Shown here piece after piece: positions 15,772 through 61,885 of a stretch of 64,000 nt of DNA. How positions within the stretch are numbered: the first letter of the stretch is position 1; each line of letters opens with the position of its first letter. The position numbers and the translations under genes are program-made. The notes beneath the pieces were generated by a model. That model made no database searches, was not told the DNA's origin, and saw nothing but the letters and a program-made list of their open reading frames with translations. This DNA comes from a virus (lineage: Duplodnaviria > Caudoviricetes): positions 1 through 64,000 of the IMG/VR virus record IMGVR_UViG_3300033073_001027; one strand, written 5' to 3'.

Positions 15772-15779
15772 TATTTATA
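15772..15779 (-). promoter_or_regulatory. T4-type late promoter TATAAATA
   Basis: Exact TATAAATA on the minus strand just upstream of gp25. Confidence 0.8.
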
Positions 15780-31716: not shown

Positions 31717-31721
31717 TAATC

Positions 31722-31752
31722 TATTTATACTATAGAATTCTTTAGAAGTCAA
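31722..31752 (-). promoter_or_regulatory. Overlapping sigma70-like (TTGACT-17-TATAAA) and late (TATAAATA) promoters for the tmRNA
   Basis: TTGACT at 31752-31747; TATAAATA at 31729-31722. Confidence 0.7.
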
Positions 31753-36992: not shown

Positions 36993-37089
36993 AAATGAAA
37001 GGATCCATTTTTCTAATTGCCTTTAACCTCTGTTTAAGTTTCTTCTTATTTTGAAAATACTTAATAATCTTGAAAAATATTTTGATCAT
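36985..37089 (-). CDS. 34-aa peptide with C-terminal DPFIYD motif
   Basis: Read manually: MIKIFFKIIKYFQNKKKLKQRLKAIRKMDPFIYD*. It has a GGAG RBS, an ATGA overlap with the upstream rSAM stop, and overlaps the carbamoyltransferase start. Confidence 0.75.
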   Translation of the reverse strand: MIKIFFKIIKYFQNKKKLKQRLKAIRKMDPFIYD

Positions 37090-39049: not shown

Positions 39050-39058
39050 TAATTCCTC

Positions 39059-42642: not shown

Positions 42643-42648
42643 AAGTTT

Positions 42649-45475: not shown

Positions 45476-46857
45476 TTCCACTCCTCAATTAAATGTGTAT
45501 ATTCGGGGAAAGTTTCTGCGAAGTTCTTTCCTCTGCGCTTATCGTATTCATTGACAAACTTAACGAAATCTGCTCTATACTTGTCTTGTGTTGGTTCAGT
45601 TCGCAGATAATCACAGAACCTTTGTATTTGATCGAACTCTTCCAGATATAATCTGGCATGGTGAGAAGGAGAATGATATTTTAACCATCCTCTGCAATAT
45701 TCTTCAATTTGATCGGCGTACATATCTCGTGTTGCTTTATCGAGCATAGTTGCCTGAAGGTGAACAGGATATCGCAAGTAATTAACACTAAGAGGAATCA
45801 TATTCTCTTCAGTAAACTTGTTGAAGAATACTCTGAGTTCCATCAATTCTTCAATAAACTTAGTAAATGTTGGAAGACTGAGAATATTGATTGTTGTCAT
45901 AATAGTCACTCTGGACTTGGTCATGTTCAGAATTTTTTGAACATTATTATGCCAATCTCTATAATTTAAACCATCTCTAGCATATTCTGCCTGTTTACCA
46001 TAACTTTCTATACTGGTATAGATGTCGATCTGCTTCACACTATATTCGAGATCATTAATATCTGCAATCAATCTGTCAATCAATTCAGGAGAAGAACCCA
46101 AGTTAGTATTAACTGCCAGTTCTAAGTTTGGTTGTGGATTCTTCTTGATCATCTCCATAGTCTGCCAGAAATCCTTACTCATGGTCGGTTCTCCGCCAGT
46201 CATGCGGAACACCCTAAGATACTTCAATGCTTCTGGAAACCAAATTTTAAATGCTTCGGAGTAAGGATTGTGTTCACTGTTTTTATATGGAAACCGTCCT
46301 GCTTCCTTCAACCAATCAAGATGATGTGCACTAAACGTCGTTGGATATGGACCATTCTGCTTAATATCTTCCATCCATTTGCTAGAAATTTCAGGAGAAC
46401 AATACGCACAAGCAAAATTGCAAGCATTAGAAAATGAAACTTCTAGATATGTAGGATACACGTTTTGATCCCACGGATGAGAAGATAATTCTTCTACCTT
46501 ATCAAACGACCAATGTTCTGCTGTTTTGTAATGTCGATCCGAAAAATAGTCTTTACCGAGATCTTCAATTTTCCAACAGTATTCACACTCGCGAGGTCTT
46601 TGCCCCTCTAACATAAGTTGACGTTGTTTTTTCTTGTGTTCGCTGTTGTGCAGAGACGAAACATCATTTTCAATCTCTGACAGGGGAATTTTATGCGGCG
46701 ATGGATGGTGGCAAGAATGATTGAATCCATTTTGCAAATACAATGTAGTTTGTAACCATTTTGCGGCGCAAAATGTAGGGCTGATTGTATTCATCACATC
46801 GCGTTTGCGCTTCAGTTCTTCAATTCTTGCTTCATTTGTTCCAGTATTAACGTTCAT
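45472..46857 (-). CDS. Radical SAM protein with N-terminal twitch domain, CHH subtype (copy 2)
   Basis: CNFACAYC, TGGEPTM; N-terminal CAAKW...SCHHP...CEYCW. Confidence 0.92.
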   Translation of the reverse strand: MNVNTGTNEARIEELKRKRDVMNTISPTFCAAKWLQTTLYLQNGFNHSCHHPSPHKIPLSEIENDVSSLHNSEHKKKQRQLMLEGQRPRECEYCWKIEDLGKDYFSDRHYKTAEHWSFDKVEELSSHPWDQNVYPTYLEVSFSNACNFACAYCSPEISSKWMEDIKQNGPYPTTFSAHHLDWLKEAGRFPYKNSEHNPYSEAFKIWFPEALKYLRVFRMTGGEPTMSKDFWQTMEMIKKNPQPNLELAVNTNLGSSPELIDRLIADINDLEYSVKQIDIYTSIESYGKQAEYARDGLNYRDWHNNVQKILNMTKSRVTIMTTINILSLPTFTKFIEELMELRVFFNKFTEENMIPLSVNYLRYPVHLQATMLDKATRDMYADQIEEYCRGWLKYHSPSHHARLYLEEFDQIQRFCDYLRTEPTQDKYRADFVKFVNEYDKRRGKNFAETFPEYTHLIEEWK

Positions 46858-48170
46858 AATGTTTTACACCACTCTAAAAATTCTTTAAATTCAGGAAATG
46901 TCTCTATCAAATTAGTTCCACTGCGAAGATCGTACTCGGGAAAGAACTTGGCAAATTCTTTACGAGCACGCAGACGGTATTCTTCTGTGACTGCATGTGA
47001 GTCTTGATAAAAATATTCACGAACTCGTTCCATTTTACCGATTTCTATTTTACTGAATCCATTATGATTCATAAACTCAACATCTCGATCTATATATACT
47101 CCGAACTCTCTCGGTAGAATATTCATTGTCCAGTGTGGAGGTTCTTTAAGATGTGGGATGTCAATCAGAATACGTTCACCCCATTTTGCTCTAAGTTCTA
47201 CAATCAACTGTAGGAAGTCTTTAAAGTATGGAACAGTCAGAACATTATACGTTGTCATAAAACTCAGATACGCTGTTGGCACCGTTTCTAGAACAGTATT
47301 TACGTTCTCGAGAAACAGTTCGTAGTTTAGACCACGACGAATATACTCTGCTTGCTTACCTGTGCATTCGAGACTCGTAAACAATCGCAAATTCTTGATG
47401 TGCTTTGCTTCAATCAAACCCTGCACACGTTCGCAAAAATCTTTAACTTTACGAGTTGTAACACCAAGGTTGGTATTGATCTGTAAAAATAATTCTGGGT
47501 TACCATCTTCCTTTAACATATCCAGCAACTTAAATGTGTTTGTTGTCATCAGAGGTTCGCCACCAGTGATGCGGAAGATCTTCAAATCGTTCTTCAGATC
47601 AGGCCACCATTTCCAAAATGCTTCGACGTATGGATTGTATTCTTTTTCAGAATAAATTTTGCCATGCACACCATATGGACTATTTGAAATATCATAATCC
47701 CCAAATTGAGATATTTCCTCCTGCCACATCGAAGAAAACGTAGAACAACAATATCCGCACTTGAAGTTACAAGCATTGCTGAAACTAATTTCCATGTTAT
47801 AAGGATTTACGTCTTGATCCCATGGAGTATTGCGAAGTAGTTCCGTCTCTTCGTCTAACACAAATAGATTATTAATGCTGTCCGTATTTTTATATACTCG
47901 GTCGCTAGTTTTATCTAAATCTTCTATGCTCCAGCAATATGAACATTCACTAGGTCTGCCACCTTCAAGCATATTTTTACGCTGTTGTTTTTCATGAGAT
48001 GTATTGTGGAGGGCAGAAGGATTACTTTTAATTTCCTCCTGTGGGATATATAGAGGAGGTGGATGATGACAACTGTGTTTCTCCCCAGAGTGAAGATAAA
48101 GCGCAAGCCATCTCCACTTCTGGGGGCAAAACCCAGCACCAACAGAATCCAGTTTTTCTTTTACATTCAA
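46854..48170 (-). CDS. Radical SAM protein with N-terminal twitch domain, CHH subtype (copy 1)
   Basis: CNFKCGYC, TGGEPLM; N-terminal CPQKW...SCHHP...CSYCW. Confidence 0.92.
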   Translation of the reverse strand: MNVKEKLDSVGAGFCPQKWRWLALYLHSGEKHSCHHPPPLYIPQEEIKSNPSALHNTSHEKQQRKNMLEGGRPSECSYCWSIEDLDKTSDRVYKNTDSINNLFVLDEETELLRNTPWDQDVNPYNMEISFSNACNFKCGYCCSTFSSMWQEEISQFGDYDISNSPYGVHGKIYSEKEYNPYVEAFWKWWPDLKNDLKIFRITGGEPLMTTNTFKLLDMLKEDGNPELFLQINTNLGVTTRKVKDFCERVQGLIEAKHIKNLRLFTSLECTGKQAEYIRRGLNYELFLENVNTVLETVPTAYLSFMTTYNVLTVPYFKDFLQLIVELRAKWGERILIDIPHLKEPPHWTMNILPREFGVYIDRDVEFMNHNGFSKIEIGKMERVREYFYQDSHAVTEEYRLRARKEFAKFFPEYDLRSGTNLIETFPEFKEFLEWCKTL

Positions 48171-48692: not shown

Positions 48693-48965
48693 ATGAATAT
48701 TTTTTATGAAACTGGTAATGCGAAAAATAGCGACTTTGATCCGTTTGTAATCCGTAAAATGAACCCGAATAGTGCTTGGGCGAATCATTCCTATAATCAT
48801 TTTGTTCTGACCCATATTTTTCGGAATTCGCCTGATCCTCGGGAAAAAATCCAAGCCGGAAAGGAAATTGAAATCGCTGAACGTAAGATGAAGTTTTGGG
48901 AACGTCATCCAGATTTTGAACTCGATCATGCAGAATTCTATCGGAAAAAATATTACCGAATGTGA
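48693..48965 (+). CDS. Hypothetical early protein
   Basis: ORF track; has a promoter and RBS. Confidence 0.75.
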   Translation: MNIFYETGNAKNSDFDPFVIRKMNPNSAWANHSYNHFVLTHIFRNSPDPREKIQAGKEIEIAERKMKFWERHPDFELDHAEFYRKKYYRM

Positions 48966-48975
48966 TTTTTAGGGA

Positions 48976-49004
48976 TTGACTTTTCTGTAATTTTAGCGTA
49001 TAGT
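48976..49004 (+). promoter_or_regulatory. sigma70-like promoter TTGACT-17-TATAGT
   Basis: Elements at 48976-48981 and 48999-49004. Confidence 0.7.
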
Positions 49005-49016
49005 GATAATATTGAA

Positions 49017-49244
49017 ATGGAGATTGTTATGTTTGATATTTCTAAAGAAGCAGAAAATCTGATGATCGCTCTCGGATATGATGAGCAAGGGTTTGGTTAC
49101 GTCGCAAGCGATTACCTTGAGGTGAATTTTGAACTGGAAGCAAATGGAATTCAGTTCGGTTCCTTTGAAGATTTCCTTCGTCGTAAGTTGGAATGGAAGA
49201 ACTCTTTGAAAAGCGATGTAGTTGTTGAAAGGATTGCAGCATAA
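49017..49244 (+). CDS. Hypothetical early protein (true start possibly 49029)
   Basis: ORF track; GGAG precedes the second ATG. Confidence 0.7.
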   Translation: MEIVMFDISKEAENLMIALGYDEQGFGYVASDYLEVNFELEANGIQFGSFEDFLRRKLEWKNSLKSDVVVERIAA

Positions 49245-49459
49245 TGGTTAGTATCTATACTGAAGTCGAAGTCTATATGGAAGATTTCGATGACGCAGAT
49301 TTGATTGACGAACTTGAAGGTCGAGGTTACTATGTAGTTAAGAACCCAGCACAAGTTCCAAGTGTCAATTCACTTTATGATGCATGGATTCTAGATAAGA
49401 ATAAGTTTGAAGATTTGTTTCGCGATTTTTGCCGCGAGAATATTGGGAGGAGTTTTTAA
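49244..49459 (+). CDS. Hypothetical acidic protein
   Basis: ORF track; TAATG coupling to the upstream gene. Confidence 0.7.
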   Translation: MVSIYTEVEVYMEDFDDADLIDELEGRGYYVVKNPAQVPSVNSLYDAWILDKNKFEDLFRDFCRENIGRSF

Positions 49460-49638
49460 TGACATCATCAATTAGTCAGCAAGAAATGGATATGCATTTC
49501 GACAAGATCGAAAGTGAGATGACTCAGCAACAAGTTACTGAGTCACCCACTGTTTACTTTCGTTTCGGAGAGGAAAGTCCTCTACTTACTTGGACGTTGC
49601 TCTATACACGCCATCCCAACCCTCAGTTGGTTTCTTAG
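49459..49638 (+). CDS. Hypothetical protein
   Basis: GGAGG RBS and TAATG coupling; overlaps the 3' end of the convergent cyclase gene. Confidence 0.5.
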   Translation: MTSSISQQEMDMHFDKIESEMTQQQVTESPTVYFRFGEESPLLTWTLLYTRHPNPQLVS

Positions 49639-51631
49639 ATAGTTCTTCGATTCGTTCGACCATCATATCGTAATAAGAAGTTAACTCTCCTTGCCACTGG
49701 TCTTTAAGATCGGTGGCAAACTTTTTAGCACGGATCCAATCACCAGTACGATAAGCATGGAGGAACTTGAGATGCTCGTGCCCGAGTTTCACATTAAGTT
49801 CTGTGTCAAGAACAGTGTAGATTGATACTGGTTCAGTCTTACCCTTAACAGCGACCAAGTCTAGTTCTACTGCTTGGTAGGTTCCATCGGCGAGGACTGC
49901 TTGTGCGGTTTTTGGACCAATAACGATCTTAACCCCATAAGGTTTTGATTGTCCTTCAAGTCGGGAAGCCAGATTAACGCCATCACCAAGGCAGGTATAA
50001 TCAAAACGCTGATCGCTGCCCATATTACCAACCACAACGGTGTCAGTGTTAATCCCAAGACCCATACCAAAGGGTGGAACACCTTCTTTTTCAACTTCAG
50101 CATTGAATGCCTCCAAGTCTTTCAGCATTGCAAGTCCAGTACGAACTGCATTCATAGCATGATCTTTATCATCTAACGGTGCATTCCAGAAGGCCATCTG
50201 GGCATCACCAATATATTTGTCAAGAGTGCCTTCGTTCTCGATAATACGAGCAGTCATGGCAGTCATGTAGCGATTCATAATTTTAGTTAGACCCTGAACG
50301 TCTTTACCATAGTGCTCAGAGATAGTTGTAAATCCGCGAACGTCAGTAAACATAATTGACAGTTCTCTTGATTCACCACCAAGCGCAAGCAGTTCTGGAT
50401 TCTTCTGGAGTTTCTCGACCATTGCGGGTGACAGATATGTACCGAATTGCTTCTTGATCTGTTGCTTCTGGAGGAATTCGCTGATAAACTTGACCGTATA
50501 GATGTGCATGTAGATAATAGCAATTGCGATGATATTAAATGTCACATCGAACAGAATATGCTGTTCTTTGAAGAGATATACTGGCAAATAAAAATATCCA
50601 GCGAGAATTGCGCAAATATAAATTATAGAGAACCGAAAACGAGAGAGAACGATCAATGCAAGAGCAAGACCCAGAAAAGCAGCAAGATCCGCAACTGTTG
50701 ACCAGTTCGGAATCGCAACAGAATCTCCATTTATCAGAGTTTCAAGTATACTCGCCTGAAGGTCGTGGGGATATTGGGCACCTGATGGAGTCGCTACAGG
50801 ATTCGCTACCCCAGCAGCAGTTACGCCTAATACGACAATCTTACCAGAAAGATCAGGAAGTTTCTCGCCTATCTCAAACGTTTGAAATTTATAATTTGGA
50901 TTAATGAACACTCGACCATATTCATCGGTCTTAATGGTATCGAATTGAGGAACACGTAATGCTTCAACACCAGTCTGATTTATCTTTGCTTGATACGAAG
51001 AGTCTCCTGCAGCTACACGCAGCATCTCTATCCCAAATGCAGGATAGTATTCGCCTTTTGATTGAGATAGAAGAGGAACTCTACGTACAACCCCATCAGA
51101 CTCGGGTAGTGTCGACGTTATCCCTACACCGACGGCAGCTTCTTGCAGAACTGGAATATTACTTAGAACGCATGGGTATTGAGGAAGAAATTCAGTCGGT
51201 TGTCCGTCGCCGACGACAGCAACTCCAGTCCGAGCAATATTCTGCACCCCCTTACATGAATCAGTTGTTGTCTGACTCAGGACTACTGGGTAATTAGATA
51301 GTGCACTTGCCAATACAGCGTCAGTGCCCATGCGATCAGGCTCAGGCATAAGTACAGTGCTACCGACAAGAGCAGCCCCTCTACTATAAATGTCCTCAAT
51401 AATTTTAGCATGGACTTCGCGTGGGAAAGGCCACTGACCATATTCTTCAATTGCTTTCTCCCCGATATTTACGGTAACAATTTGTTCGGATTGTTTGGGT
51501 GAACCCAACATCAAATAGTCATAAAATTTCATTCTGGTTGCTTCAACCAGATACGGATCAGAGAGTTTTACCGCCAAAAGAATACCAAAGGTAAATAACG
51601 CCAACCATGGCGAAAGTAAAACTTTTTTCAT
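49586..51631 (-). CDS. CHASE2-domain class III adenylate/guanylate cyclase
   Basis: N-terminal TM, CHASE2 motifs (GQWPFPREVHA, DGVVRRVPL, GKIVVLG), three TMs, then FTDVRGFTTISE...DKYIGDAQMAFWNAP...GNMGS..RFDYTCLGDGVNLASRLEG. Confidence 0.95.
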   Translation of the reverse strand: MKKVLLSPWLALFTFGILLAVKLSDPYLVEATRMKFYDYLMLGSPKQSEQIVTVNIGEKAIEEYGQWPFPREVHAKIIEDIYSRGAALVGSTVLMPEPDRMGTDAVLASALSNYPVVLSQTTTDSCKGVQNIARTGVAVVGDGQPTEFLPQYPCVLSNIPVLQEAAVGVGITSTLPESDGVVRRVPLLSQSKGEYYPAFGIEMLRVAAGDSSYQAKINQTGVEALRVPQFDTIKTDEYGRVFINPNYKFQTFEIGEKLPDLSGKIVVLGVTAAGVANPVATPSGAQYPHDLQASILETLINGDSVAIPNWSTVADLAAFLGLALALIVLSRFRFSIIYICAILAGYFYLPVYLFKEQHILFDVTFNIIAIAIIYMHIYTVKFISEFLQKQQIKKQFGTYLSPAMVEKLQKNPELLALGGESRELSIMFTDVRGFTTISEHYGKDVQGLTKIMNRYMTAMTARIIENEGTLDKYIGDAQMAFWNAPLDDKDHAMNAVRTGLAMLKDLEAFNAEVEKEGVPPFGMGLGINTDTVVVGNMGSDQRFDYTCLGDGVNLASRLEGQSKPYGVKIVIGPKTAQAVLADGTYQAVELDLVAVKGKTEPVSIYTVLDTELNVKLGHEHLKFLHAYRTGDWIRAKKFATDLKDQWQGELTSYYDMMVERIEELSKKPTEGWDGVYRATSK

Positions 51632-52185
51632 TGCGTCAATTCTTTCCATTCTTCTGGGGTGATTTCTCGTTTAGTTGCAAGTAAATTTTCATAATGTATA
51701 TATTCTGTTTCTAAATCATTTTCAGAATACACATCATTTTTTACATAAACTTTTGATTCGCTTTTGGTATTTGTGGTAATTGTTCTGTTGTCAGTTGGTA
51801 TATACTCAGATAATCTATCAAAATTAATATAACAAAAATCAAGATAATTTTGACGCCATTGACCTGTTTCAATATCATAGTGCACAAAATTCATAGTATT
51901 ACCATAACATATATATTTTAAGAATGGTCTGGAATGCTCGATAAATTGCTGTCTAGCATGTTCATCATATATTATACTATTACATCCAAATCTTTTATAT
52001 GCAGAAATTAATCGTTGGTACGGATTGCGCAACACAACAATTCTAAGATTTTTTGTAGTTTGCCAAATATTAAATGATTCCGCAACACAAGTATATACGG
52101 GAATATTAAAATACCCATACATACTTGTATGACCGCATCTTGTTGCAGAATAAACACACATTTTACCATTATCATAAACAAACAT
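51628..52185 (-). CDS. Sulfotransferase-like protein (Sulfotransfer_2-type motifs)
   Basis: TRCGHTSM (5'-PSB-like) and VLRNPYQRLISAY (3'-PB-like); visibly AT-richer than its neighbours. Confidence 0.55.
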   Translation of the reverse strand: MFVYDNGKMCVYSATRCGHTSMYGYFNIPVYTCVAESFNIWQTTKNLRIVVLRNPYQRLISAYKRFGCNSIIYDEHARQQFIEHSRPFLKYICYGNTMNFVHYDIETGQWRQNYLDFCYINFDRLSEYIPTDNRTITTNTKSESKVYVKNDVYSENDLETEYIHYENLLATKREITPEEWKELTQ

Positions 52186-52187
52186 AA

Positions 52188-53642
52188 TTAATTCTTCGTA
52201 TAAGAGTATCCATTACATGGTCCAGTCGTACATGTTATTTCCATTTTTGCAGAGTCTGCGGCAGTCAAGTTATTTTGCGAAACTGTCACACCAATACCTG
52301 CATTATTTAATATAAGTTGAAATTGTTTAGCAGAAGAACCAATTTGAGATACTGTAGCAGAAACTCCACCAAATGGCGCATCAATCTGTAAGAAATGGTT
52401 TCCCAATCCTTCTTGCAACGCACTGATATTATTAGAATTTCCTAACGCATTGATAAACAACGATTTTCCGTTTGCGTCTTTTTGTTGTGCAGAAATCTGA
52501 TTGCCAAGACCATTGGTTACAATCTCAGCATACTTGCTACCATGCTGTTGCGTCAGCGATATAATATTGTTGTTACCAGTCACCGAAACTTCTGCCAAAT
52601 TTTTACCGATTGGTGTTGTCGCAGTCCCTTGATTAATTGTAATACTGTTACCACTACCATTGATCAACATTGCTTGTGCACCATTAACACCGCGAATCTG
52701 ATTCTGTTTAGAAAACTGTTCAATATAAACTGAATTATTAGATCCAGTTGCATTAATGTAGATAGAGTTTTGCGTAATTGCATTAGTCTGATTGATCTTT
52801 AGTGATTGACTCGCACTAATTGCAGCAGCAGGATATGTTGGTTCTACAGGTCCAGGAGTCGGAGGTGGCGGGGCAGAAGATCCCGCATTTGGTTGAACTG
52901 GTGTGAATGTCGCACCATTCAGCAACGTTGTACCTTGCATCTGGTCAATGAAAAGAATTGGCGACAAAGCAGTATCACCAAGATTGAATGAAGCAAATCC
53001 TAATGTGTAGTTACCATCAGTAGGAACAGTAAATACCGCAACTTGCCAACCAGTGGCACCATACGAGTTAGTAGAGTAGTTACCAGTGCCAGTATTAGTA
53101 AAACCTAACAGAGCAAAGTTTTGTGTCTGTCCATTGATAGTTGGTGTTCCTGGTCCGCCAGTCAAAGTAATCAGAGAACCATCATTGTATGGCATGTAGT
53201 CTGTTGAAACATACTGCCAAGCAAACGTATAAGTAACCCCTGCTTGTAGCGTTACTGTTCTACTGATAGATGACGCATTAGTCGGCCACATGTTACCATT
53301 AGAATAGATCGTATTTTTAATTGATGTAATCGCTGAACCAGCAAGACCAAGAGTGGTCATAGCATTATCAAAGGTTGGCGAACCACCCCCTGCTTGAACA
53401 GCGACCATGTATGATCCGTATGGTGTAACTGTCCAGCACTTACCGCCACCAGGACAATAGTTTTGCATTCCAGATGTTACTTGAACACCAGCGCCGTTTG
53501 GACTCCAAGAAGTGCGAAGTGTAGTTGATCCGTTACTTACTGTCCAACCAGTATAATTCCCGTTCTCAAACCCGTAGTTTGCAACCTGCGCAAAAGATGG
53601 GAAAGAGAAGAACAGAAGAAATAGAGCGATTAATTTTTTCAT
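52188..53642 (-). CDS. Secreted protein: N-terminal beta-sandwich-like domain, Pro linker, C-terminal curlin-like repeats
   Basis: Signal peptide MKKLIALFLLFFSFPSFA; NYGFENGNYTGWTV; PPPPTPGPVEP; repeats such as TGSNNSVYIEQ, GSGNSITINQG, TGNNNIISLTQ, GLGNQISAQQ and GNSNNISALQEG. Confidence 0.75.
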   Translation of the reverse strand: MKKLIALFLLFFSFPSFAQVANYGFENGNYTGWTVSNGSTTLRTSWSPNGAGVQVTSGMQNYCPGGGKCWTVTPYGSYMVAVQAGGGSPTFDNAMTTLGLAGSAITSIKNTIYSNGNMWPTNASSISRTVTLQAGVTYTFAWQYVSTDYMPYNDGSLITLTGGPGTPTINGQTQNFALLGFTNTGTGNYSTNSYGATGWQVAVFTVPTDGNYTLGFASFNLGDTALSPILFIDQMQGTTLLNGATFTPVQPNAGSSAPPPPTPGPVEPTYPAAAISASQSLKINQTNAITQNSIYINATGSNNSVYIEQFSKQNQIRGVNGAQAMLINGSGNSITINQGTATTPIGKNLAEVSVTGNNNIISLTQQHGSKYAEIVTNGLGNQISAQQKDANGKSLFINALGNSNNISALQEGLGNHFLQIDAPFGGVSATVSQIGSSAKQFQLILNNAGIGVTVSQNNLTAADSAKMEITCTTGPCNGYSYTKN

Positions 53643-54778
53643 CTCTGCCCTGTCTCCTGAATAACAGTGATGTTACCTTGCGGTCTACCAGTACCAGATG
53701 TTGTCCATTTATCATCCATAAAGTTGTAAACATCAACCAATCCATTTTGCACGGAAACTAACTGCAGTTCTGTAGATTTTTCCATCCACACAGTGATTGC
53801 TTGTTGTTTATCTTCCGAGAGACGAGTATAAACCCAACCAACCTGCACATTCTTTTTGAATGTTGGAGAAACGTTAGTATAAATCGTTTCTGCTGGTCTA
53901 TTTCCCTCGTTGAATTCTTGATAAACTTCAATCAACTCTTGCGGAGTTGCTTGTCGAATCATAACAGCAGCAACCTGTTCGACATTGTCTGTAGTTCCTG
54001 CGTCAGGATCTTTATTGTCATCTCCTGCTGCTCTTGCTGGGTTTGTGAATTTCTTGAGTGTTTCTCTAGCAACCTGCAGCAAACTTTGACCGTCGTCTGT
54101 TTCCAGAGGAACAATCTGAACACTGTTGTCTAGTGTCTTCATCAAAGGATTAATTACCACTGGTGGAGAAGGTGGGGCATAAGAATTCTCAACAACAGTT
54201 GCTTGGAATGCTTTTGTAAGAGAAACAACTCCAGACGCAGTGATAACATCGATCGCACCATTAGGACAATCTGCTGTTTGTTTTGTAATATCTAATTCAT
54301 TATAGCATTCGGGAACAAGCACGACCGTCGAACGACCTGCTTCATCAACCGACATAACGAAGTCTGTGCCACGAACTGCGATGGTTGCAGTAGGTGTGCG
54401 AATATTTACGCCTTTCGCGTTACCGTGCGCGATGGCACCTGAGGTGTATCTGACAGTGCCGAGTGCGACTCGTAACCCGAGTTTGCCTTTCGACTTCCCT
54501 CCGCCATCATAAACAAAGTCATCGATAAGAAGTTTAGAGTTTTCTGTAATATTGACCGTAGTTGCATCATTGAATGTAATCCTAAATCTTCCCTGAGAGT
54601 TGGTGGACACCGTGTCCATTTTTTCAACACCAGAACCCTTCGCGGCAGGTGCTGCTTTCACCCCACGTTTAATTTGCCCACCACCCTTAGCATCGGTGAT
54701 CGACCCGATTGATGCCATCGCAGGGGTCGATACCAATAGTAAAAGATTAATGGCCAGTTTTAATATTGAACGTGCCAT
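53639..54778 (-). CDS. FecR-domain protein (exported)
   Basis: Signal peptide; DTVST...ITFNDATTVNITENSKLLIDDFVYD...GTVRYTSG...IRTPTATIAVRGTDF. Confidence 0.88.
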   Translation of the reverse strand: MARSILKLAINLLLLVSTPAMASIGSITDAKGGGQIKRGVKAAPAAKGSGVEKMDTVSTNSQGRFRITFNDATTVNITENSKLLIDDFVYDGGGKSKGKLGLRVALGTVRYTSGAIAHGNAKGVNIRTPTATIAVRGTDFVMSVDEAGRSTVVLVPECYNELDITKQTADCPNGAIDVITASGVVSLTKAFQATVVENSYAPPSPPVVINPLMKTLDNSVQIVPLETDDGQSLLQVARETLKKFTNPARAAGDDNKDPDAGTTDNVEQVAAVMIRQATPQELIEVYQEFNEGNRPAETIYTNVSPTFKKNVQVGWVYTRLSEDKQQAITVWMEKSTELQLVSVQNGLVDVYNFMDDKWTTSGTGRPQGNITVIQETGQR

Positions 54779-55508
54779 TTGAACCTGTGCTGTTAATGTT
54801 TATAACAGTTTCGGAAACACCATATTGTTGTGTTGTTACAGTGTTTAGAGAACCTGTTAGATTCACATACAGCGAGTGACCAAATGTTCCACCAGTGCCT
54901 GTTTGTGTAATATCAAAGTCGTTGTAGTTACCAGTCACAAGTAGAGTCTGCGATGCATTAGGAGATAATGCATCAATGTTAAATGTGTTGTTATTACCAG
55001 AGATATCCATCGAGTTGCGGATATTGGCACCCGAACCATGGAACACAATCGAGTTTGAATTACCAGTAAACTTAGCATTCATGTCAAGTTGATTACACAA
55101 CGAATCTGTCTGCAGAGTTCCGCAGCGAATATCTGCAGAGTTTAGATCGCCAAGTTGACGAATTGTTACTGTTGCGATTCCTTGGGCCCCAGTGTTGGAA
55201 ACAATTCCCATGTAGAGAGTGTTTCCGTTACCTGTCTGAATACCAATGACGCTTTGGTTGTCCCCACGTAGATAGATAGGATCAACAGCGGAACCAATAA
55301 TATTGGCAGTACCAGTTTGAACAATGTTAACATCTACATTGCCTCCTTGCTGATCGATATATACCTTATTTGTAGTTGCCACTGCATTAGCGTCAGTTTC
55401 GTTAGGTGAAGTTGTGACGATTGCTGGTGGAGTTGGTGCTGTTGGCAGAACTGTCTGAGCGAACGCAGAAGTTGAAACGAACAGCAAACCTAGTGCGAAT
55501 TTCTTCAT
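54747..55508 (-). CDS. Secreted curlin-repeat (CsgA/CsgB-like) protein
   Basis: Signal peptide MKKFALGLLFVSTSAFA; repeated x-I-x-Q-x-G-x-x-N units (NKVYIDQQG, NIVQTGTAN, IQTGNGN, IRQLGDLN, ISGNNN, ITQTG). Confidence 0.75.
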   Translation of the reverse strand: MKKFALGLLFVSTSAFAQTVLPTAPTPPAIVTTSPNETDANAVATTNKVYIDQQGGNVDVNIVQTGTANIIGSAVDPIYLRGDNQSVIGIQTGNGNTLYMGIVSNTGAQGIATVTIRQLGDLNSADIRCGTLQTDSLCNQLDMNAKFTGNSNSIVFHGSGANIRNSMDISGNNNTFNIDALSPNASQTLLVTGNYNDFDITQTGTGGTFGHSLYVNLTGSLNTVTTQQYGVSETVININSTGSNGTFNIKTGH

Positions 55509-56323
55509 TTAGATTGCTCCTGTTTTTGCTTAAATCTCCATAGATTTTTTCTTTCACCATCCTTGATCACCTCAACAACGGCCGTTTCTATGGCAGAACG
55601 GATAGCATAACTACCTGCTTCATTACTTGTTTGTTGTCCATCGAACTCAAATGCTTTCGTGTCCATATCGAAGAACTTGAAAGCAGTGATACCTTCAGAA
55701 GTCGAGAGAACTGTTTTCTCAACTGTAACTGAAGTCAGCACCTCGCCAGTCTGGACAGATACTAGACGAATACTAATCGTAACTTGGTCTTGCGCATATT
55801 GCTGGTATGGACCGATGCCAAGGAAACGAGCACCTGTTCCTCCAGTTTTAATGTTCGAATTATAGTCAATGATGCCACCCTCAAGAATGATACCTGCAAC
55901 TTTTAGTGGCGGTAGAGGTTCAGCACTTTCACCAGCAATTTGTTCACGCATCTGGCGAACAAGTTGACGTTCTTTAATGAGTGAATCGATTCCAACACGC
56001 TCAACAGGAACAAACCACTTACCATCGCCTGTATCTTGTAGAGTTTTAATCAGATATGCGTCAGCACCCTGAGTTACTGCTGTTGAGAAACTTGCTAATG
56101 TCGATGATGGTTTACGTTGCCCTGTTCTATCAGTAAATGCATATAGAGCGATAGGAATAGGTTGACCGTCTAACTCTGGTAGATTCTTGAATAATTTTGG
56201 ATTCGCGAATCTTTTGACTTCTGCATCTTCTCTGAACAAATAGGATTGATTGGTGGCAGGATGAAGCGCACCAACGCACCCTGAAGTTGCGAGCAGAAGC
56301 GGAAGGAGAATTAACTTTTTCAT
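55505..56323 (-). CDS. csgG: Curli secretion pore lipoprotein CsgG
   Basis: Lipobox LATSGC; YAFTDRTGQRKP...FSTAVTQGA...WFVPVERVGIDSLIKERQLVR...EGGIIDY...TGGTGARFLGIG...RLVSVQTGEVL. Confidence 0.93.
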   Translation of the reverse strand: MKKLILLPLLLATSGCVGALHPATNQSYLFREDAEVKRFANPKLFKNLPELDGQPIPIALYAFTDRTGQRKPSSTLASFSTAVTQGADAYLIKTLQDTGDGKWFVPVERVGIDSLIKERQLVRQMREQIAGESAEPLPPLKVAGIILEGGIIDYNSNIKTGGTGARFLGIGPYQQYAQDQVTISIRLVSVQTGEVLTSVTVEKTVLSTSEGITAFKFFDMDTKAFEFDGQQTSNEAGSYAIRSAIETAVVEVIKDGERKNLWRFKQKQEQSK

Positions 56324-56332
56324 ATATCCTCC

Positions 56333-56779
56333 TTAGAATGCGAATGTAGCAATAGGAACAGTAACAACCGTAGTGTTACCATTCTTATCGACAACTGTTA
56401 GAGTCACATCAGTATTGCTCTTGACATAAGAAATCTTATTTCCGTCAAGATTAAAAGTTCCTGCTCTCGCCTCAGAACCCTCAGCAAACAGATTGTTTGA
56501 AAGTTGTGTAGCAAGTTGGGCATAAACCTGTGAGGTGAACAGTGCCATAAACTTTGCTAGTGGTGTATTTGATGCCTCTGCCTTTGCCAGCGCAATCTTT
56601 GCTGCTTCCGCATCTTTAATTGCTTGAGTACGCGAACGTTCTTGGGCATCAATTGATTGAACGTGCGATGACCACCCATAACCATTGAAGGAAGGTGATT
56701 TAAAGGACTGGACTATAGGGTCTGCGAATGCTGGACTACTTAGACTTAGTAGCAGGAGCATCGTCGCTCGTTTTAGCAT
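56333..56779 (-). CDS. csgF: Curli assembly protein CsgF-like
   Basis: Signal peptide, FKSPSFNG (compare CsgF NPxFGG), SQVYAQLATQLSNNLF and TVVTVP; adjacent to csgG. Confidence 0.8.
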   Translation of the reverse strand: MLKRATMLLLLSLSSPAFADPIVQSFKSPSFNGYGWSSHVQSIDAQERSRTQAIKDAEAAKIALAKAEASNTPLAKFMALFTSQVYAQLATQLSNNLFAEGSEARAGTFNLDGNKISYVKSNTDVTLTVVDKNGNTTVVTVPIATFAF

Positions 56780-56867
56780 CTTTCTCTTCCTTTATTTTTT
56801 TATTTGAAGAAAAATCTAATTCAAGCGTAAATACTTTAAGGATCTCAATTTTTAGTCTTAATGTCAT
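56736..56867 (-). CDS. Possible 43-aa hypothetical protein
   Basis: Read manually: MTLRLKIEILKVFTLELDFSSNKKIKEEKDAKTSDDAPATKSK*. It has a GAGGA RBS and bridges the gap with overlaps on both sides. Confidence 0.45.
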   Translation of the reverse strand: MTLRLKIEILKVFTLELDFSSNKKIKEEKDAKTSDDAPATKSK

Positions 56868-57111
56868 CACTATGATCCTCTTTTATTTGCAATACAACAC
56901 TCACCTTCTGATTTAATCTAATAAGATCGTTATCTAACATGCGAATTCTATCAATTAGTGCGATCAAAATTACATTTGTCTCACCAATCAACGGCATTAA
57001 TTTATCTGTAACAAATTTGTAAATAAACCAAACAAAATATCCCATGCCAACTGCGGCGACAATAGGAAATCCGTACTGTTTAACAAACGAAACTATCAAT
57101 TCGGGATCCAT
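56845..57111 (-). CDS. Small single-TM membrane protein, YvrJ/holin-like
   Basis: QYGFPIVAA TM segment followed by a coiled coil (DRIRMLDNDLIRL). Confidence 0.6.
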   Translation of the reverse strand: MDPELIVSFVKQYGFPIVAAVGMGYFVWFIYKFVTDKLMPLIGETNVILIALIDRIRMLDNDLIRLNQKVSVVLQIKEDHSDDIKTKN

Positions 57112-57398
57112 TAGTCCCTCCTTGCGTCGTTCTTCCCGTCTGCTCTTGCGATTCTATCTAAGTCTGGTTTCAGACCCAAAGCGGAACTAACAACAGCATC
57201 AACGCGAATAATATCATGGTTCATGGTTTTCACACGGTTGTCCAACCCCATAATAATACCCTGCATTCCCTTGATCGCCTTAACAACGCTCTCAAGAATG
57301 TAGTTGATGACAAAATACACGAAAACGCCACCGAGCAATGCTGCCGCGATGGGAAATCCTACATCTCCAATAAGTTTAAAAATTGCATCGTAACTCAT
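57111..57398 (-). CDS. Small single-TM membrane protein, YvrJ/holin-like (paralogue of the preceding gene)
   Basis: DVGFPIAAA TM segment followed by NRVKTMNHDIIRV. Confidence 0.6.
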   Translation of the reverse strand: MSYDAIFKLIGDVGFPIAAALLGGVFVYFVINYILESVVKAIKGMQGIIMGLDNRVKTMNHDIIRVDAVVSSALGLKPDLDRIARADGKNDARRD

Positions 57399-57403
57399 GC
57401 ATT

Positions 57404-57411
57404 TATTTATA
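57404..57411 (-). promoter_or_regulatory. T4-type late promoter TATAAATA heading the holin-like/curli/cyclase operon
   Basis: Exact motif 5 nt upstream of the ATG at 57398. Confidence 0.75.
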
Positions 57412-57417: not shown

Positions 57418-58515
57418 TCAATGCAAATACTTAAAATCGCACATCATACGAGTCGGATATCCGTCAGTTCCTTGTGTATCACGAATGTTAAGTTTAAATT
57501 CGTAAGTGGAACTCTTGACGACTATATCGATACGCTTCCCTGCTCCGCCTTTACCACCATAGAATATTTCTTGCGAAATAGGAGTCGCTGCAGTTCGCAT
57601 ATATTGTTCATCAACTGCATAGGATTTTATTTTTCCTGGCATTTTGTGAATAACGTGATAGTTATGACCGATGCCTGTTTCCAACAACGTCTTAAGACCC
57701 TGTTTATCTGGAACAACTGTCTCTTTAGTTCCCTGCTTCAAATCTCCGTTGAATATATCACAAAACTTCTTGGGATCTATCTTAAACAATTCTAGAAGCG
57801 CAAGTCCATCTTTGTTGGTTATATTTCCAGATTGTATTTCACTCTTAGTGAGAATAGTTTTAATACCAACATTAAAGAAGGTAACAGTACTTTCAAATTT
57901 CAAACTTAGATATAGTTTCTTCTGAATACCTTGCTTGTTTTTCCAATGAACTGTTACGTCTGTGACAAGTTCTCCAACATCAGTTCCGCTTCCCTTTGGA
58001 TTCGAAACCTTAATACCATTGGTAAATGTTAGAGGTCTTCTGTTATTCGCGGCACCTTCCGCCGCTACTTTGAAGTCTGACTGGTTTCCTTCGCCAATAC
58101 CATACTTCTTGTCTAGACCTTCAATTGTATCCAACACAGTTCTATCAATATTGTCGAGATTACCTTCTCGCCATTTGTTTAATGCATCGACGAATTCATA
58201 TTCAAACGCATTACCTCTATTCTGAACACCTCTGTTACCAGAAGAACCATCTCCGAATTTCATCTTAAATGGTTGTTGGACTTTGGCAAGAGAAAGTATC
58301 TGAGATTCTGTGAGAGAACCTTTTATCGCACGAACAACATTGATTGGAGAATTCTCTCCTTTTGTCGTATCAATGTTGATTGGAGTTTCTATTGATGGAT
58401 ATTTTGTGCGCAGCAATGCAAAAACACGAGAGCAGTTCTCTCTGTATTTGTCAGACTTACTTTTCAGTTTGTCTTGGATCTCTTTTTCAGATTTTGGGAA
58501 AAAATCGTACGCCAT
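57418..58515 (-). CDS. Hypothetical protein, possible PD-(D/E)XK nuclease fold
   Basis: NRGNAFE...TDVTV...YLSLK pattern; GAGG RBS. Confidence 0.55.
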   Translation of the reverse strand: MAYDFFPKSEKEIQDKLKSKSDKYRENCSRVFALLRTKYPSIETPINIDTTKGENSPINVVRAIKGSLTESQILSLAKVQQPFKMKFGDGSSGNRGVQNRGNAFEYEFVDALNKWREGNLDNIDRTVLDTIEGLDKKYGIGEGNQSDFKVAAEGAANNRRPLTFTNGIKVSNPKGSGTDVGELVTDVTVHWKNKQGIQKKLYLSLKFESTVTFFNVGIKTILTKSEIQSGNITNKDGLALLELFKIDPKKFCDIFNGDLKQGTKETVVPDKQGLKTLLETGIGHNYHVIHKMPGKIKSYAVDEQYMRTAATPISQEIFYGGKGGAGKRIDIVVKSSTYEFKLNIRDTQGTDGYPTRMMCDFKYLH

Positions 58516-58533: not shown

Positions 58534-58541
58534 TATTTATA
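58534..58541 (-). promoter_or_regulatory. T4-type late promoter TATAAATA
   Basis: Exact motif upstream of the 58515 start. Confidence 0.75.
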
Positions 58542-58544: not shown

Positions 58545-59663
58545 TCAGCGAATAATATCAATCTTTTCGATCGTTTCGGGCGACCAAATTTCTAAATTTT
58601 GACGCAAACGTCCGTCCGAACGCAAAGTTTCGTATCTTGAGGACGCTTTTTTCTTCCACCAGCGAATAATATTCTCAGAATAGTGCTTGTCAAAGTTTTC
58701 AGGACTCTTAATTAGCGTTTTATCGGTTCCGAGGATGTAATTTTTAGAATTTTCGTATCCGTAAGTCGAAATATAGAATCTTTTTTGCGTTGTAACGTCT
58801 TTGTTCGCCTGAATTGCGTTCGAAAACTCCTTCAAGAGTTCGGATTCGTAATATTTTAGCGAATTTTTGATAACTGCCATCATTTTGTTTTGCATTTTCA
58901 ACTTGTAGGAGGCAATTCCCTCTCTACCAAACAAAGGTTGACCATTATTCTTACTTGCAAACCAATTCATCGTCTCTTCCCAGAAATCATCCGAGAATGC
59001 AAGCACAAAATTGCTTACTGTATCACCAGTGTAGCGAATAAACGGTTTTAGTCCGTCGTATTGCGACGCTTGTTTGATATTTCCGTAAAGAGATGTTGTT
59101 TCAAAAAGACAAGTTTCCATGTCATATTTCTTATTGAACATTTCACGGAACTCATGAGAAGCGCAAAGAAGTGCACAAAGTTTACCACCAAGGTAGTTGA
59201 ACCCAAACGGTTGCGCAGGGACGATAATGAACCCCATAACTGCATGCTTGTTGAAAGATCGTAAATCTGGAACGCGACCAAACCAATCATTACGAGGTTT
59301 AGAATTAATGAGAGGACTGGCGACTCGACAAAATCCAACATATTTTCCTGTGTTCTTTTCTCTTACAATGAATTTAATCTCCTTCCCGAACGAATTCTCA
59401 TTACAGAAAGACGAGGTGATCTCGACCATCGTTGAAAATTCGCTCGGGGAGGGTTCGAAGATCTCAAACTCCATATCTTCAGGATGCATATCGAAATCCG
59501 AGAACAACATGTGTTCTGGTTCACAACCTGGAAGAGTTGCAGGAAGAGACTTCAAACGTTCTAACTTCTTCATGCGCATGTGGTCATCGATTCGACCATA
59601 GTTTGACATATAGTCAATGAATCGACGACCAATATATTCTGCGTCTTGTTTTTCTAATAGCAT
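58545..59663 (-). CDS. DUF4338/DruA-like protein
   Basis: KFIVREKNTGKYVG...SP.....PRNDWFG...IVPAQPFGFNYLGGKLCALL...ETTSLYG....SQYDGL...GDT motifs. Confidence 0.65.
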   Translation of the reverse strand: MLLEKQDAEYIGRRFIDYMSNYGRIDDHMRMKKLERLKSLPATLPGCEPEHMLFSDFDMHPEDMEFEIFEPSPSEFSTMVEITSSFCNENSFGKEIKFIVREKNTGKYVGFCRVASPLINSKPRNDWFGRVPDLRSFNKHAVMGFIIVPAQPFGFNYLGGKLCALLCASHEFREMFNKKYDMETCLFETTSLYGNIKQASQYDGLKPFIRYTGDTVSNFVLAFSDDFWEETMNWFASKNNGQPLFGREGIASYKLKMQNKMMAVIKNSLKYYESELLKEFSNAIQANKDVTTQKRFYISTYGYENSKNYILGTDKTLIKSPENFDKHYSENIIRWWKKKASSRYETLRSDGRLRQNLEIWSPETIEKIDIIR

Positions 59664-59669
59664 TAAATG

Positions 59670-59698
59670 ACTATACTACGAGGAAACAAGAAAGTCAA
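59670..59698 (-). promoter_or_regulatory. sigma70-like promoter TTGACT-17-TATAGT
   Basis: Elements at 59698-59693 and 59675-59670. Confidence 0.7.
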
Positions 59699-59699
59699 G

Positions 59700-60509
59700 T
59701 TAAAAAAGATCTTCAAGTGAAGATTCAACCTTCTTATACTTCTTGTTTCGATCATGCAGTTTCAGTTCTGCATGCCCAGTCGACTCACGAATATACATCG
59801 TACACAGTTCTGGGAAAGTATCAGCAATAATCTTGACGCTGTCATAGACATACTGCTTGGTTCGGAAGTCTTGTAGTCCACCTTCTTCCTTATAGTATCG
59901 CGACTTAACAGTATAATCGTCTAGACGAACTAGAACACCATTCTTAATATACTGGCGAATAGAATATTCGTAGTCTTCACCGTGATTGGTAATACGAGCA
60001 AGGAAGTCATCATGCTCAACAATAACACCAAACATAGAAGCAATGATATAACAGATGTCGTTATAAACACGGTGCTTCATAAAATATGCATTAGCAGCAG
60101 CATAGATACCAAAAGTCTTAGCACCTACCTTGTCACATTCCTCGAAACCACGAAGAATAACTTCCTTCTCCAGATCCTCGACTCGACCCAACTTCTGTTC
60201 GCTAATCTTTACCTGAACTTCTTCAATGTCATCATCGAACATCATGAGACGAGTTCCCTCAGGATACCACTTCTCGATAAAATTGCGCTGAGCACCAATG
60301 GTCGGAACTCCACGAATAATCTCAATATCCTTTGCGTAAGGATTATCCTTCAACGCATTGGCATAGCGATCATATTCACCTTCTTCCTGATCATTAACAA
60401 AGATCTTAATCTTGGCAGGATCAATGTTATACGACTCAAGAACCTTCAACGTCTTATTCTGAACAGTCTTTTCACGATGATAAGACGGGATGGCAATACA
60501 ATAATCCAT
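59700..60509 (-). CDS. TET-associated (GREB1-like, GT-A) glycosyltransferase
   Basis: IAIPSYHR...RNFI...MFDDDI...GEDYEYSI...GGL motifs; coupled to the TET/JBP gene. Confidence 0.8.
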   Translation of the reverse strand: MDYCIAIPSYHREKTVQNKTLKVLESYNIDPAKIKIFVNDQEEGEYDRYANALKDNPYAKDIEIIRGVPTIGAQRNFIEKWYPEGTRLMMFDDDIEEVQVKISEQKLGRVEDLEKEVILRGFEECDKVGAKTFGIYAAANAYFMKHRVYNDICYIIASMFGVIVEHDDFLARITNHGEDYEYSIRQYIKNGVLVRLDDYTVKSRYYKEEGGLQDFRTKQYVYDSVKIIADTFPELCTMYIRESTGHAELKLHDRNKKYKKVESSLEDLF

Positions 60510-61885
60510 TAAAACAAATCCTCCAATGACGATGTTACTTCATATGCTTTAGGGTGATACTTCTCAACTGTTTCTCGACCCATCTTTTCTTCTAGGTAGT
60601 CATACCATTCTTGTTCATCCCACATTCCAGGCGATACGCCATTCCAAAGTGGGCGATAATACTTATGCTCGTGGTTGCTTCTGCGATCTACAACATACTG
60701 CTCCCGAGTTGTTTCGTATTCATACGATCCAAGTTCCAACATGTTCTCGCGGAAATAGCAAACGAGCGAGATACGTTCTGCTTCTGGATTATTTAGAACG
60801 ATCTCAGTGTTACCGTGCATAATTTCATGATTGTTAACAAGCAGCAGATCTCCTGGGCGAACGTTTACTGCGATACGATATTCAGGAAATACTAGATAAC
60901 CACCAGTATAATCCCCGCTACCGACAACAAGCAGATTGCTGAGACCATCGTCAAGATCGCCAGCATCTCTGTGGGCAGCAGTACGGAACGACTTGTTGAC
61001 TGTGATAGTTGTAAATACGGTTCCTGGGACAACAAACTTCTCATCGATTCTGTCGACTGCTGCTTTCTGATTCCCCCAACGCCATGGGAGTAGTTCCTTG
61101 AAACCTCTGTCAAGAGACTGTAGAAAAGGAAAGGAAAGGCGAAACTTATCAAAATTATCGCGAGTGTAACTAGTAGCACGCCCAAAAGGAATTCTCGGAT
61201 AACGATCGTACCACCCAGCAACACCTGAGAAAACCGACTTCGCATAGTTTGTGGTTGAGATCCACTTGGTGGCAACGATTTTTGCTGCATCTACAATTTC
61301 TTCCTTAGACTTTCCATCAAGACTATCGACCCACTTGTCGAACCATCCGAAATATTCTGGATATACCTTACATACCTGACTACGCAACCAGACTGCGCCA
61401 CGAGTTTCATCTGCATTCGAACGAGGCGCACCTGCATACTTAGCACGAATGCTTTCGATTGATACGTCTTCGATCAATCTTCCGCTAGTATCCATCAGGA
61501 AATCGAGCATCTCGAGTTCGTAATCAGTTACCCAGTCACGGCCGCCACGACCCTCTACGCCAAGAATCTCACCGCGAGGACCAGCAGCAAGTCCACGATT
61601 CTGCGATTCGGTTGCTGCTTCTCGCAGTCCGAGATATGCCTGATCCTGTTCTTCCTGAGTAAACCAGTTCTTACGAAACTTGAATGCGATTCGTCGCTCA
61701 TCAGTGCCAATATCGCAATCACTACAATCTTTATCGCATGAAACTTTTGTGTCAAGACCACAGTCTGCTTCCATATAGCAGTCGGTATCTTCATTGATCA
61801 CAACATCAAAGTGACTCTCATCTAGATATTGACCTAGTAGGTGTTCGCAGTCGAGTTTAGACTCTGCGACAATAACTTTTACCAT
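60509..61885 (-). CDS. TET/JBP-family 2-oxoglutarate/Fe(II) dioxygenase
   Basis: SGVAGWYDR, FTTITVNKSFRTAAHRDAGD (HxD), GDLLLVNNHEIMHGNT (distal His) and RISLVCYFRE (2OG-binding Arg). Confidence 0.88.
   Translation of the reverse strand: MVKVIVAESKLDCEHLLGQYLDESHFDVVINEDTDCYMEADCGLDTKVSCDKDCSDCDIGTDERRIAFKFRKNWFTQEEQDQAYLGLREAATESQNRGLAAGPRGEILGVEGRGGRDWVTDYELEMLDFLMDTSGRLIEDVSIESIRAKYAGAPRSNADETRGAVWLRSQVCKVYPEYFGWFDKWVDSLDGKSKEEIVDAAKIVATKWISTTNYAKSVFSGVAGWYDRYPRIPFGRATSYTRDNFDKFRLSFPFLQSLDRGFKELLPWRWGNQKAAVDRIDEKFVVPGTVFTTITVNKSFRTAAHRDAGDLDDGLSNLLVVGSGDYTGGYLVFPEYRIAVNVRPGDLLLVNNHEIMHGNTEIVLNNPEAERISLVCYFRENMLELGSYEYETTREQYVVDRRSNHEHKYYRPLWNGVSPGMWDEQEWYDYLEEKMGRETVEKYHPKAYEVTSSLEDLF

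Follow-up and report, generated by a model that had tools for sequence, protein, structure and literature searches.

A T4-like phage cassette that combines curli-type export genes with a FecR-domain protein and a CHASE2 cyclase

The DNA analysed here, referred to as the window, comprises the first 64 kb of the 102-kb IMG/VR virus record IMGVR_UViG_3300033073_001027 (CheckV completeness 59%), which comes from a T4-like phage with Pelagibacter phage HTVC008M and Methylophilales phage Melnitz as relatives. Between 57398 and 49586 on its minus strand lie nine open reading frames (ORFs; Table 1), which encode two small membrane proteins, CsgF, CsgG, two curlin-repeat proteins with a FecR-domain protein between them, a sulfotransferase-like protein, and an adenylate cyclase with a CHASE2 domain. 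We put at about one in two (a probability near 0.5) the reading that this region is a mobile late cassette, which would endow the infected cell both with curli-like fibre export and with an envelope sensor built from the FecR-domain protein and the CHASE2 cyclase. CsgG and CsgF would form the outer-membrane pore of type VIII (curli-like) export, the first curlin would be the fibre subunit, and the second would, by means of its conserved curlin-like anchor, present a variable head of the lectin or adhesin type along that fibre, with the surface of the infected cell likely being coated with sticky or masking fibres for adhesion, aggregation or receptor shielding. The soluble periplasmic FecR-domain protein would work with the CHASE2 domain of the inner-membrane cyclase, a periplasmic or envelope cue being thereby converted to cytoplasmic cyclic AMP (cAMP), and the two small membrane proteins would serve as dedicated inner-membrane components of the cassette.

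The cassette as such has already been published, its core discovery dating to 2020-2022. The presence of csgFG in these myoviruses was described by Zaragoza-Solas et al. 2020 (PMC7029224) and Buchholz et al. 2022 (PMC9004378), with FecR and the cyclase unmentioned, and the whole set was reported in pelagiphage podoviruses and myoviruses by Wittmers et al. 2022 (PMC9599517), so that the view taken in the original prediction, namely that the full combination of pore, curlin, FecR and cyclase was unreported in phages, has to be withdrawn. The gene order given in that study is 'HK' (one or two), CsgF, CsgG, CsgA/B, FecR, a second CsgA/B and adenylate cyclase, with HK, FecR and the cyclase being noted as foreign to bacterial curli operons. 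The cassette genes were found at all 65 GOV2 stations and are expressed in metatranscriptomes, and the functions proposed for them are superinfection defence, sibling capture and cofactor import (PMC9599517). The later literature that we searched adds no function for the cassette, and the term CHASE2 was found neither in three papers on these phages nor in combination literature searches. The version described here is probably a member of a distinct clade with an extra sulfotransferase-like insert, and what is newly added is the identity of the cyclase as a CHASE2 receptor, the non-kinase nature of the small proteins, and the modular adhesin architecture of the second curlin.

Co-inheritance and origin of the cassette

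A CsgG-seeded scan of IMG/VR recovered at least 560 contigs, from which 80 loci were fetched and searched by tblastn with the nine cassette proteins; for the FecR gene at least 4,588 homologues were found. The FecR gene follows CsgG in all 63 loci with at least 2.5 kb of sequence downstream of CsgG, and the cyclase is present, always in the same place, in every one of the 41 loci whose sequence extends 7 kb or more beyond CsgG. The order CsgF, CsgG, curlin, FecR, (curlin 2), cyclase is invariant down to 43% CsgG identity. Both curlins are found in nearly all related loci with enough flanking sequence, the first going undetected by tblastn in a few of the more distant, and the small proteins are present in 78 of the 80 loci, having moved past the cyclase in five, where they still lie within about 8 kb. 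These counts agree with the original prediction, which had proposed a coupled system and had named a lack of co-occurrence of the cyclase and FecR genes with csgFG in relatives as evidence to the contrary.

Among 50,697 cultured-phage records, matches to the small protein, CsgG and FecR are shared by six, namely four of Melnitz and two of HTVC008M. Full-length matches to the CHASE2 cyclase are confined to the same six, three further records matching the catalytic domain alone, and CsgG additionally matches a 1.5-kb fragment of a Salmonella phage. A megablast search of these records with the cassette gave no match, the relatives being found only at the protein level. In the window, the genes for transfer-messenger RNA (tmRNA), gp33, gp59 and ssb are located at 28.7-31.7 kb and are separated from the cassette by a 14-kb radical-SAM array. 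The genomic position of the cassette thus differs from that in Melnitz, so that it moves as a module.

The nearest bacterial CsgG proteins show 35-48% identity and belong mostly to Sphingomonadales and Caulobacterales, a few coming from other lineages. In the 22 nearest bacterial loci, none of the FecR, cyclase and small transmembrane (TM) protein genes occurs less than 10 kb from csgG. No bacterial locus with the complete set was found; among the 24 loci retrieved from the nearest CsgG genes, phage-type cassette genes are confined to two contigs that are almost certainly misbinned phage sequences. One of these (L088; RGCF01000015.1), filed as a 'Bacteroidetes bacterium' metagenome-assembled genome (MAG), carries the full cassette at 83-97% identity; the other (L108), filed as 'uncultured Cellvibrio', is a fragment of just 2.3 kb, and the cassette genes on it are limited to those for the small proteins, CsgF and CsgG (37-63% identity). 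Conversely, a relative of the cyclase adjoins FecR-domain and TPR genes without csgG in a bacterial MAG (locus L007), and in a Phenylobacterium genome (G009) contig C5 carries neighbouring CHASE2 and FecR genes, csgG being located on a different contig. The pairing of a FecR-domain protein with a CHASE2 cyclase has been described in Campylobacterota (PMC9239204) and, at smc02177, in S. meliloti (PMC5498481); the CHASE2 cyclases of the latter organism respond to an external protein signal via an outer-membrane protein (PMC13001267). As judged from these gene neighbourhoods, the FecR-domain protein and the CHASE2 cyclase are a recurrent bacterial pair that is encoded away from csgG. Given that bacterial csgG loci lack FecR and the cyclase, and that the bacterial FecR-CHASE2 pairs lack csgG, the phage cassette is an interleaved mosaic of two bacterial modules.

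Operon layout and components of the cassette

The nine genes form a run of abutting or overlapping ORFs, as the original prediction had described it: taken from 5' to 3', the eight junctions measure -1, +65, +9, -4, -32, -4, +2 and -22 nt, the spacing being tight (-32 to +9 nt) apart from the single 65-nt gap. The T4-type late-promoter motif that had been placed ahead of the first gene was likewise recovered. The window contains nine copies of the motif, TATAAATA, all on the gene strand, against an expectation of 4.2 over both strands. In nearly all close relatives (L008-L035) a spacing of 4-8 nt between TATAAATA and the ATG is kept despite differing flanks. A gp33-like homologue of the late coactivator is encoded at 30417-30596, so that the features of a T4-type late unit, namely the motif ahead of the first gene, its conservation in relatives and an encoded late-transcription factor, are all present. 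With only 5 nt from TATAAATA to the ATG, neither a leader nor a Shine-Dalgarno site can be accommodated, and the conserved spacing implies, as far as the sequence allows, that the late mRNA of the cassette would be leaderless or nearly so. T4 late transcription starts about 6 nt after the promoter motif. A second case of TATAAATA positioned 5-6 nt before a start codon, without a Shine-Dalgarno site, is seen at the ORF 15376-15765 (window 15765-15779), and the late mRNAs of both this ORF and the cassette would be leaderless if transcription started about 6 nt after the motif, as it does in T4.

At the opposite end, the plus-strand ORFs that converge on the cassette show stronger conservation among relatives than the alternative ORFs on the minus strand, and a 13-bp terminator-like hairpin lies on the plus strand at 49691-49719, where it falls within the 3'-terminal part of the cyclase gene. 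The convergence of conserved small genes on the cyclase gene, together with their overlap with its end, suggests that the transcription unit ends there.

Table 1. Coordinates and sequence matches of the cassette genes and of the elements that bound them (window positions).
Feature	Position	Strand	Details
TATAAATA, T4-type late-promoter motif	57404..57411	-	5 nt before first ATG, near-leaderless
Small membrane protein 1, 95 aa	57111..57398	-	G-F-P-I motif, one TM, charged helical C-terminus; phrog_18771 E 2e-29
Small membrane protein 2, 88 aa, paralogue of protein 1	56845..57111	-	phrog_18771 E 3e-31
CsgF homologue with signal peptide	56333..56779	-	Pfam CsgF E 6e-17, positions 4-132 of 132
CsgG outer-membrane lipoprotein pore	55505..56323	-	Pfam CsgG E 1e-51
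Curlin-repeat protein 1, 253 aa, presumed fibre subunit	54747..55508	-	Signal peptide; Curlin_rpt E 2.5e-4
Secreted FecR-domain protein, 379 aa	53639..54778	-	Pfam FecR E 4e-12
Curlin-repeat protein 2, 484 aa	52188..53642	-	Signal peptide, ~235-aa head, Pro-rich linker, curlin-like C-terminal domain
Small sulfotransferase-like protein	51628..52185	-	No signal peptide; Sulfotransfer_2 E 5e-5 (weak)
CHASE2 receptor adenylate cyclase, class IIIb (predicted)	49586..51649	-	Pfam CHASE2 E 1e-37, Guanylate_cyc E 9e-19
Convergent small genes bounding operon 3' end	48693..49638	+	Overlap last 53 nt of cyclase gene

Pfam matches bear out the identities that had been proposed for CsgF, CsgG, the first curlin, the FecR-domain protein and the CHASE2 cyclase. 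The CsgF translation shows a signal peptide and the N-terminal motif F-x-S-P-S-F-N-G, and CsgG can be aligned over its full length with structures of the E. coli protein (E 1e-47), its lipobox Cys being kept; among the three residues that form the constriction in E. coli, only the equivalent of F56 is retained. The CsgG lipoprotein, CsgF and secreted curlin-repeat subunits that characterize type VIII secretion are thus all found, with CsgE being the component that is not (see below).

The first curlin exceeds the Pfam cut-off of Curlin_rpt (21.3 bits against 20.7) and matches CsgB with E 0.006; in the alignment of its family (A4) the positions of the Q-x-G-x-x-N repeat are invariant, as are two Cys residues. 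The second curlin, which had been described as carrying an extra N-terminal domain, itself matches no Pfam family. Homology to the first curlin is seen over its C-terminal 200 aa (hhalign probability 98.9%, E 1.8e-17), 9 of the 20 members of its family match Curlin_rpt, and residues 290-484 form strand-turn-strand repeats in the AlphaFold2 model, with a predicted local distance difference test score (pLDDT) of 60-87. This conserved anchor ends in a C-x4-C motif. The head of the version in the window is probably a galactose-binding-like jelly roll; Foldseek gives no match to it at E <= 0.001, and CBM4/9, cleaved-adhesin and DUF642 emerge from Foldseek and Atlas as weak leads only. In relatives the heads are non-homologous, being instead F5/8 type C (E 2e-12), PA14 (E 3e-8), GLEYA or DUF7486 domains, with head-swapped versions seen for instance at L036:13021-14862, L048:10011-11339 and other loci of the alignment of this family (A5). 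Heads of the F5/8-C, PA14 and GLEYA types are carbohydrate-binding or adhesin domains. By these homologies the second curlin combines a conserved curlin anchor with lectin-type heads that are exchanged between lineages, and variable heads on a constant anchor are the pattern that would be expected for an exposed adhesin.

The FecR-domain protein starts with a cleavable-looking signal peptide, the FecR domain beginning at about residue 25. Its AlphaFold2 model is confident at residues 25-200, for which Foldseek matches the periplasmic domains of the FecR family (4m0h, and PupR, 6ovk), and a Cys pair, C158/C171, is invariant. The signal peptide stands in place of the N-terminal anti-sigma domain and the TM segment, both of which are missing, and the protein is thus not an anti-sigma factor; the anti-sigma or iron-regulator label is accordingly rejected. 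A curlin repeat in the C-terminus, by which the protein could dock to the fibre, was also considered and is not supported, with an hhalign probability of 1.2% and with the hidden Markov model of the curlin unit scoring real FecR C-termini no better than shuffled versions.

The cyclase shows the canonical order of CHASE2 receptors, with a TM segment, the periplasmic CHASE2 domain, three TM segments and the cyclase domain. When aligned with CyaB of P. aeruginosa (3r5g) and cyanobacterial cyclases, it retains all catalytic residues, namely the two metal-binding Asp (D436, D482), the Lys and Thr that contact the substrate (K478, T552), the Asn and Arg of the transition state (N559, R563), and K602, so that the intact catalytic motifs reported earlier are upheld. 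By these residues it is an adenylate-type class IIIb enzyme that is predicted to be catalytically competent. The sulfotransferase-like gene ahead of it is indeed part of the run but does not belong to the core of the cassette: it recurs at the same position only in one related locus (L021, 37% identity) and is absent there from Melnitz, HTVC008M and the other loci, which points to a sporadic insert.

Functional readings of the cassette

Several observations weigh against a cassette for fibre export and envelope sensing. A search of the 102-kb record (completeness 59%) gave no match to CsgE (PF10627), and the absence of this protein, likewise reported for the pelagiphage cassettes (PMC9599517), leaves gating and substrate delivery unexplained. 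The AlphaFold2 model of the head of the second curlin is of low confidence, the C-terminal 170 aa of the FecR-domain protein have no assigned fold (pLDDT < 50), and no clumping was observed in Melnitz-infected cells (Buchholz et al., PMC9004378). In podovirus cassettes FecR is always kept, with the second curlin and the cyclase being only 'frequently' present (PMC9599517), and this suggests that FecR may serve the secretion system rather than the cyclase. The transition-state Asn (N559 here) is replaced by Ser in 4 of the 10 phage CHASE2 cyclases aligned (A2), including that of Melnitz (L001) and those of marine relatives; the Ser variants always pair with Asp rather than Thr at the substrate-specifying position 552, and this combination may be a covarying active-site variant. 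Finally, no cyclic-nucleotide-binding protein (PF00027) was found in the source record, nor in a further five records from related phages, of which three are complete. The cNMP_binding domain is missing in 44 of the 201 alphaproteobacterial genomes sampled, and the 20 of these 44 that were listed are mostly small genomes.

A first alternative, which we regard as unlikely, holds that two independent functions have been transferred together: the type VIII secretion system, the curlins and a FecR that replaces CsgE as a periplasmic accessory would make the fibres, and the cyclase would reprogramme host metabolism through the cAMP receptors of the host. This would accommodate both the podovirus pattern and the absence of CsgE, and it is also consistent with the location of FecR between the curlin genes rather than beside the cyclase, and with the insertion of the sulfotransferase-like gene ahead of the cyclase without disturbance of the rest. 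However, the myovirus loci keep the cyclase in 41 of 41 cases and in a constant place, and bacterial FecR-domain genes recur beside CHASE2 cyclases with no csgG nearby. These two observations, taken together, make a partnership of FecR with CHASE2 the simpler reading.

The combined reading, of fibre export joined to a FecR/CHASE2 sensor, can be carried a step further, to a form that we consider rather improbable. FecR would here bridge the CsgG/CsgF pore, or the curlins in transit, to the CHASE2 domain, so that load on the lectin-headed fibres upon contact with a cell, a particle or a competing virion would give rise to cAMP, and the small proteins would be the inner-membrane effectors of a trans-envelope contact sensor installed by the virus.

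Quite improbable in our view is the model of the original prediction, in which a signal passing from an amyloid or receptor through FecR and CHASE2 to cAMP would tune lysis timing or superinfection exclusion, with the small proteins acting as a holin/antiholin pair in an analogue of T4 lysis inhibition. The apparently late expression from the conserved TATAAATA would suit such a role, Buchholz et al. (PMC9004378) argued for a function in lysis timing from synteny, and outside-in sensing through an outer-membrane protein has its CHASE2 precedent in the S. meliloti cyclases (PMC13001267); outside-in signalling with an effect on lysis timing would be a plausible reading. That the small proteins are paralogues (30% identity, BLASTP E 4e-14) with one TM segment each (residues 13-31 in the first) was correctly predicted, and, as would befit a holin, they head the operon and match the PHROG holin family phrog_4898 weakly (E 0.006-0.007). 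This match, however, does not reach a safe threshold, no holin family is assigned to them by Pfam, NCBIfam or Atlas, the closest named look-alike being YvrJ (a lead only), and a Pfam scan of the ten flanking ORFs revealed no endolysin or spanin family. Furthermore, their matches among the cultured-phage records are restricted to the six with the cassette, and they do not occur in related myoviruses that lack it, which argues that they are not the general holin of the lineage. From their sequences they look like components of the cassette rather than lysis genes of the lineage, and they are not convincingly holins. The phage records examined also lack a receiver of cAMP. The version of the model with holins and lysis timing has the least support. 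The labelling of the small proteins as histidine kinases (PMC9599517) was also considered and is rejected: at 88-95 aa they match neither HisKA nor HATPase, no His is conserved across 97 homologues, and they cannot be enzymes of this kind.

A very unlikely alternative, put forward by Buchholz et al. (PMC9004378) and Zaragoza-Solas et al. (PMC7029224) and in keeping with the absence of CsgE and the conservation of just one of three E. coli constriction residues, would reduce the system to its pore. CsgG/CsgF would then be an ungated outer-membrane channel through which small molecules enter or leave, or a lysis device resembling a pinholin or a secretin, and the curlins would not be secreted fibre subunits. 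This is countered by the conservation beside the pore, in nearly all related loci with sufficient flanking sequence, of two signal-peptide curlins with invariant repeat positions, by that of CsgF, which is dispensable for the pore itself, and by the lectin-type heads, which are sensible only when exposed.

Phages with the cassette are very abundant in aquatic metagenomes, as is apparent from the number of IMG/VR contigs (at least 560) with its CsgG gene, and in published work the cassette accounts for about 0.1% of ocean viral proteins. Should infected cells prove to make lectin-tipped amyloid fibres and to sense their envelope through a viral receptor cyclase, the view of aggregation, particle attachment and phage competition in the most abundant planktonic bacteria would change. 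To our knowledge, almost no ligands have been identified for CHASE2 and FecR-domain sensors, and a compact cassette of this kind, which can be transferred to a laboratory host, would then constitute a tractable model for them.

Genomic neighbourhood and comparison with known systems

The region directly upstream of the cassette begins with a 365-aa ORF (57418-58515, minus strand), which belongs to no Pfam family and has its own TATAAATA at 58534-58541; it is present in only 2 of the 80 related loci and thus appears to be a variable neighbour. Beyond it, at 58545-61885 on the minus strand, a DruA-like (Druantia) protein, a TET-associated glycosyltransferase and a TET/JBP dioxygenase are encoded in what looks like a DNA hypermodification locus. 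On the other side, a long minus-strand array of ORFs of about 400-500 aa (34432-48170) separates the cassette from the replication genes. Of these ORFs, the four closest to the cassette (42649-48170) were scanned, and they match Radical_SAM, though in one case only with a score below the cut-off; one of the four matches SPASM as well. A permuted tmRNA of the alphaproteobacterial type, with the tag ANDNDVAFALAA as in Melnitz, is found at 31367-31756 on the minus strand, with a copy of TATAAATA (31722-31729) within its predicted 5' end; no glutamine riboswitch was detected at the Rfam gathering score.

The closest known system is the type VIII secretion module of the pelagiphages HTVC008M and Melnitz, which has the same gene set and order, with proteins 37-51% identical to those described here. 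The present version differs in probably forming a distinct clade, with many IMG/VR relatives at 70-95% identity, in not being located beside ssb, from which the radical-SAM array separates it, and in having the additional sulfotransferase-like gene and a different head on the second curlin. The labels 'histidine kinase' and 'iron regulator FecR' applied to the pelagiphage module are not supported by the sequences examined here.

With the bacterial curli systems, namely csgBAC/csgDEFG of E. coli and csgFG of alphaproteobacteria, the cassette shares the CsgG lipoprotein pore, CsgF, and curlin subunits with the Q-x-G-x-x-N repeat. In contrast to these systems, it lacks CsgE, CsgC/H and CsgD, its constriction residues differ, one of its subunits bears a lectin-type head, its curlins have conserved Cys pairs, and the set is combined with FecR, a CHASE2 cyclase and two small TM proteins. 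The bacterial clusters of FecR with CHASE2, as in Campylobacterota (PMC9239204) and in S. meliloti (CyaD1 and SMc02177; PMC5498481), contain the same kind of secreted FecR protein near a cyclase of the same topology; they carry TPR proteins and a phosphodiesterase, and no csgFG or curlins, whereas the phage pair is interleaved with curlin genes. The FecA-FecR-FecI system, finally, has in common with the cassette the periplasmic fold of FecR and the idea of relaying an event at the outer membrane inward. The cassette is, however, devoid of the anti-sigma domain and TM segment of FecR, of a sigma factor of the extracytoplasmic function (ECF) type, and of a TonB-dependent transducer, and its output would be cAMP rather than the release of a sigma factor.

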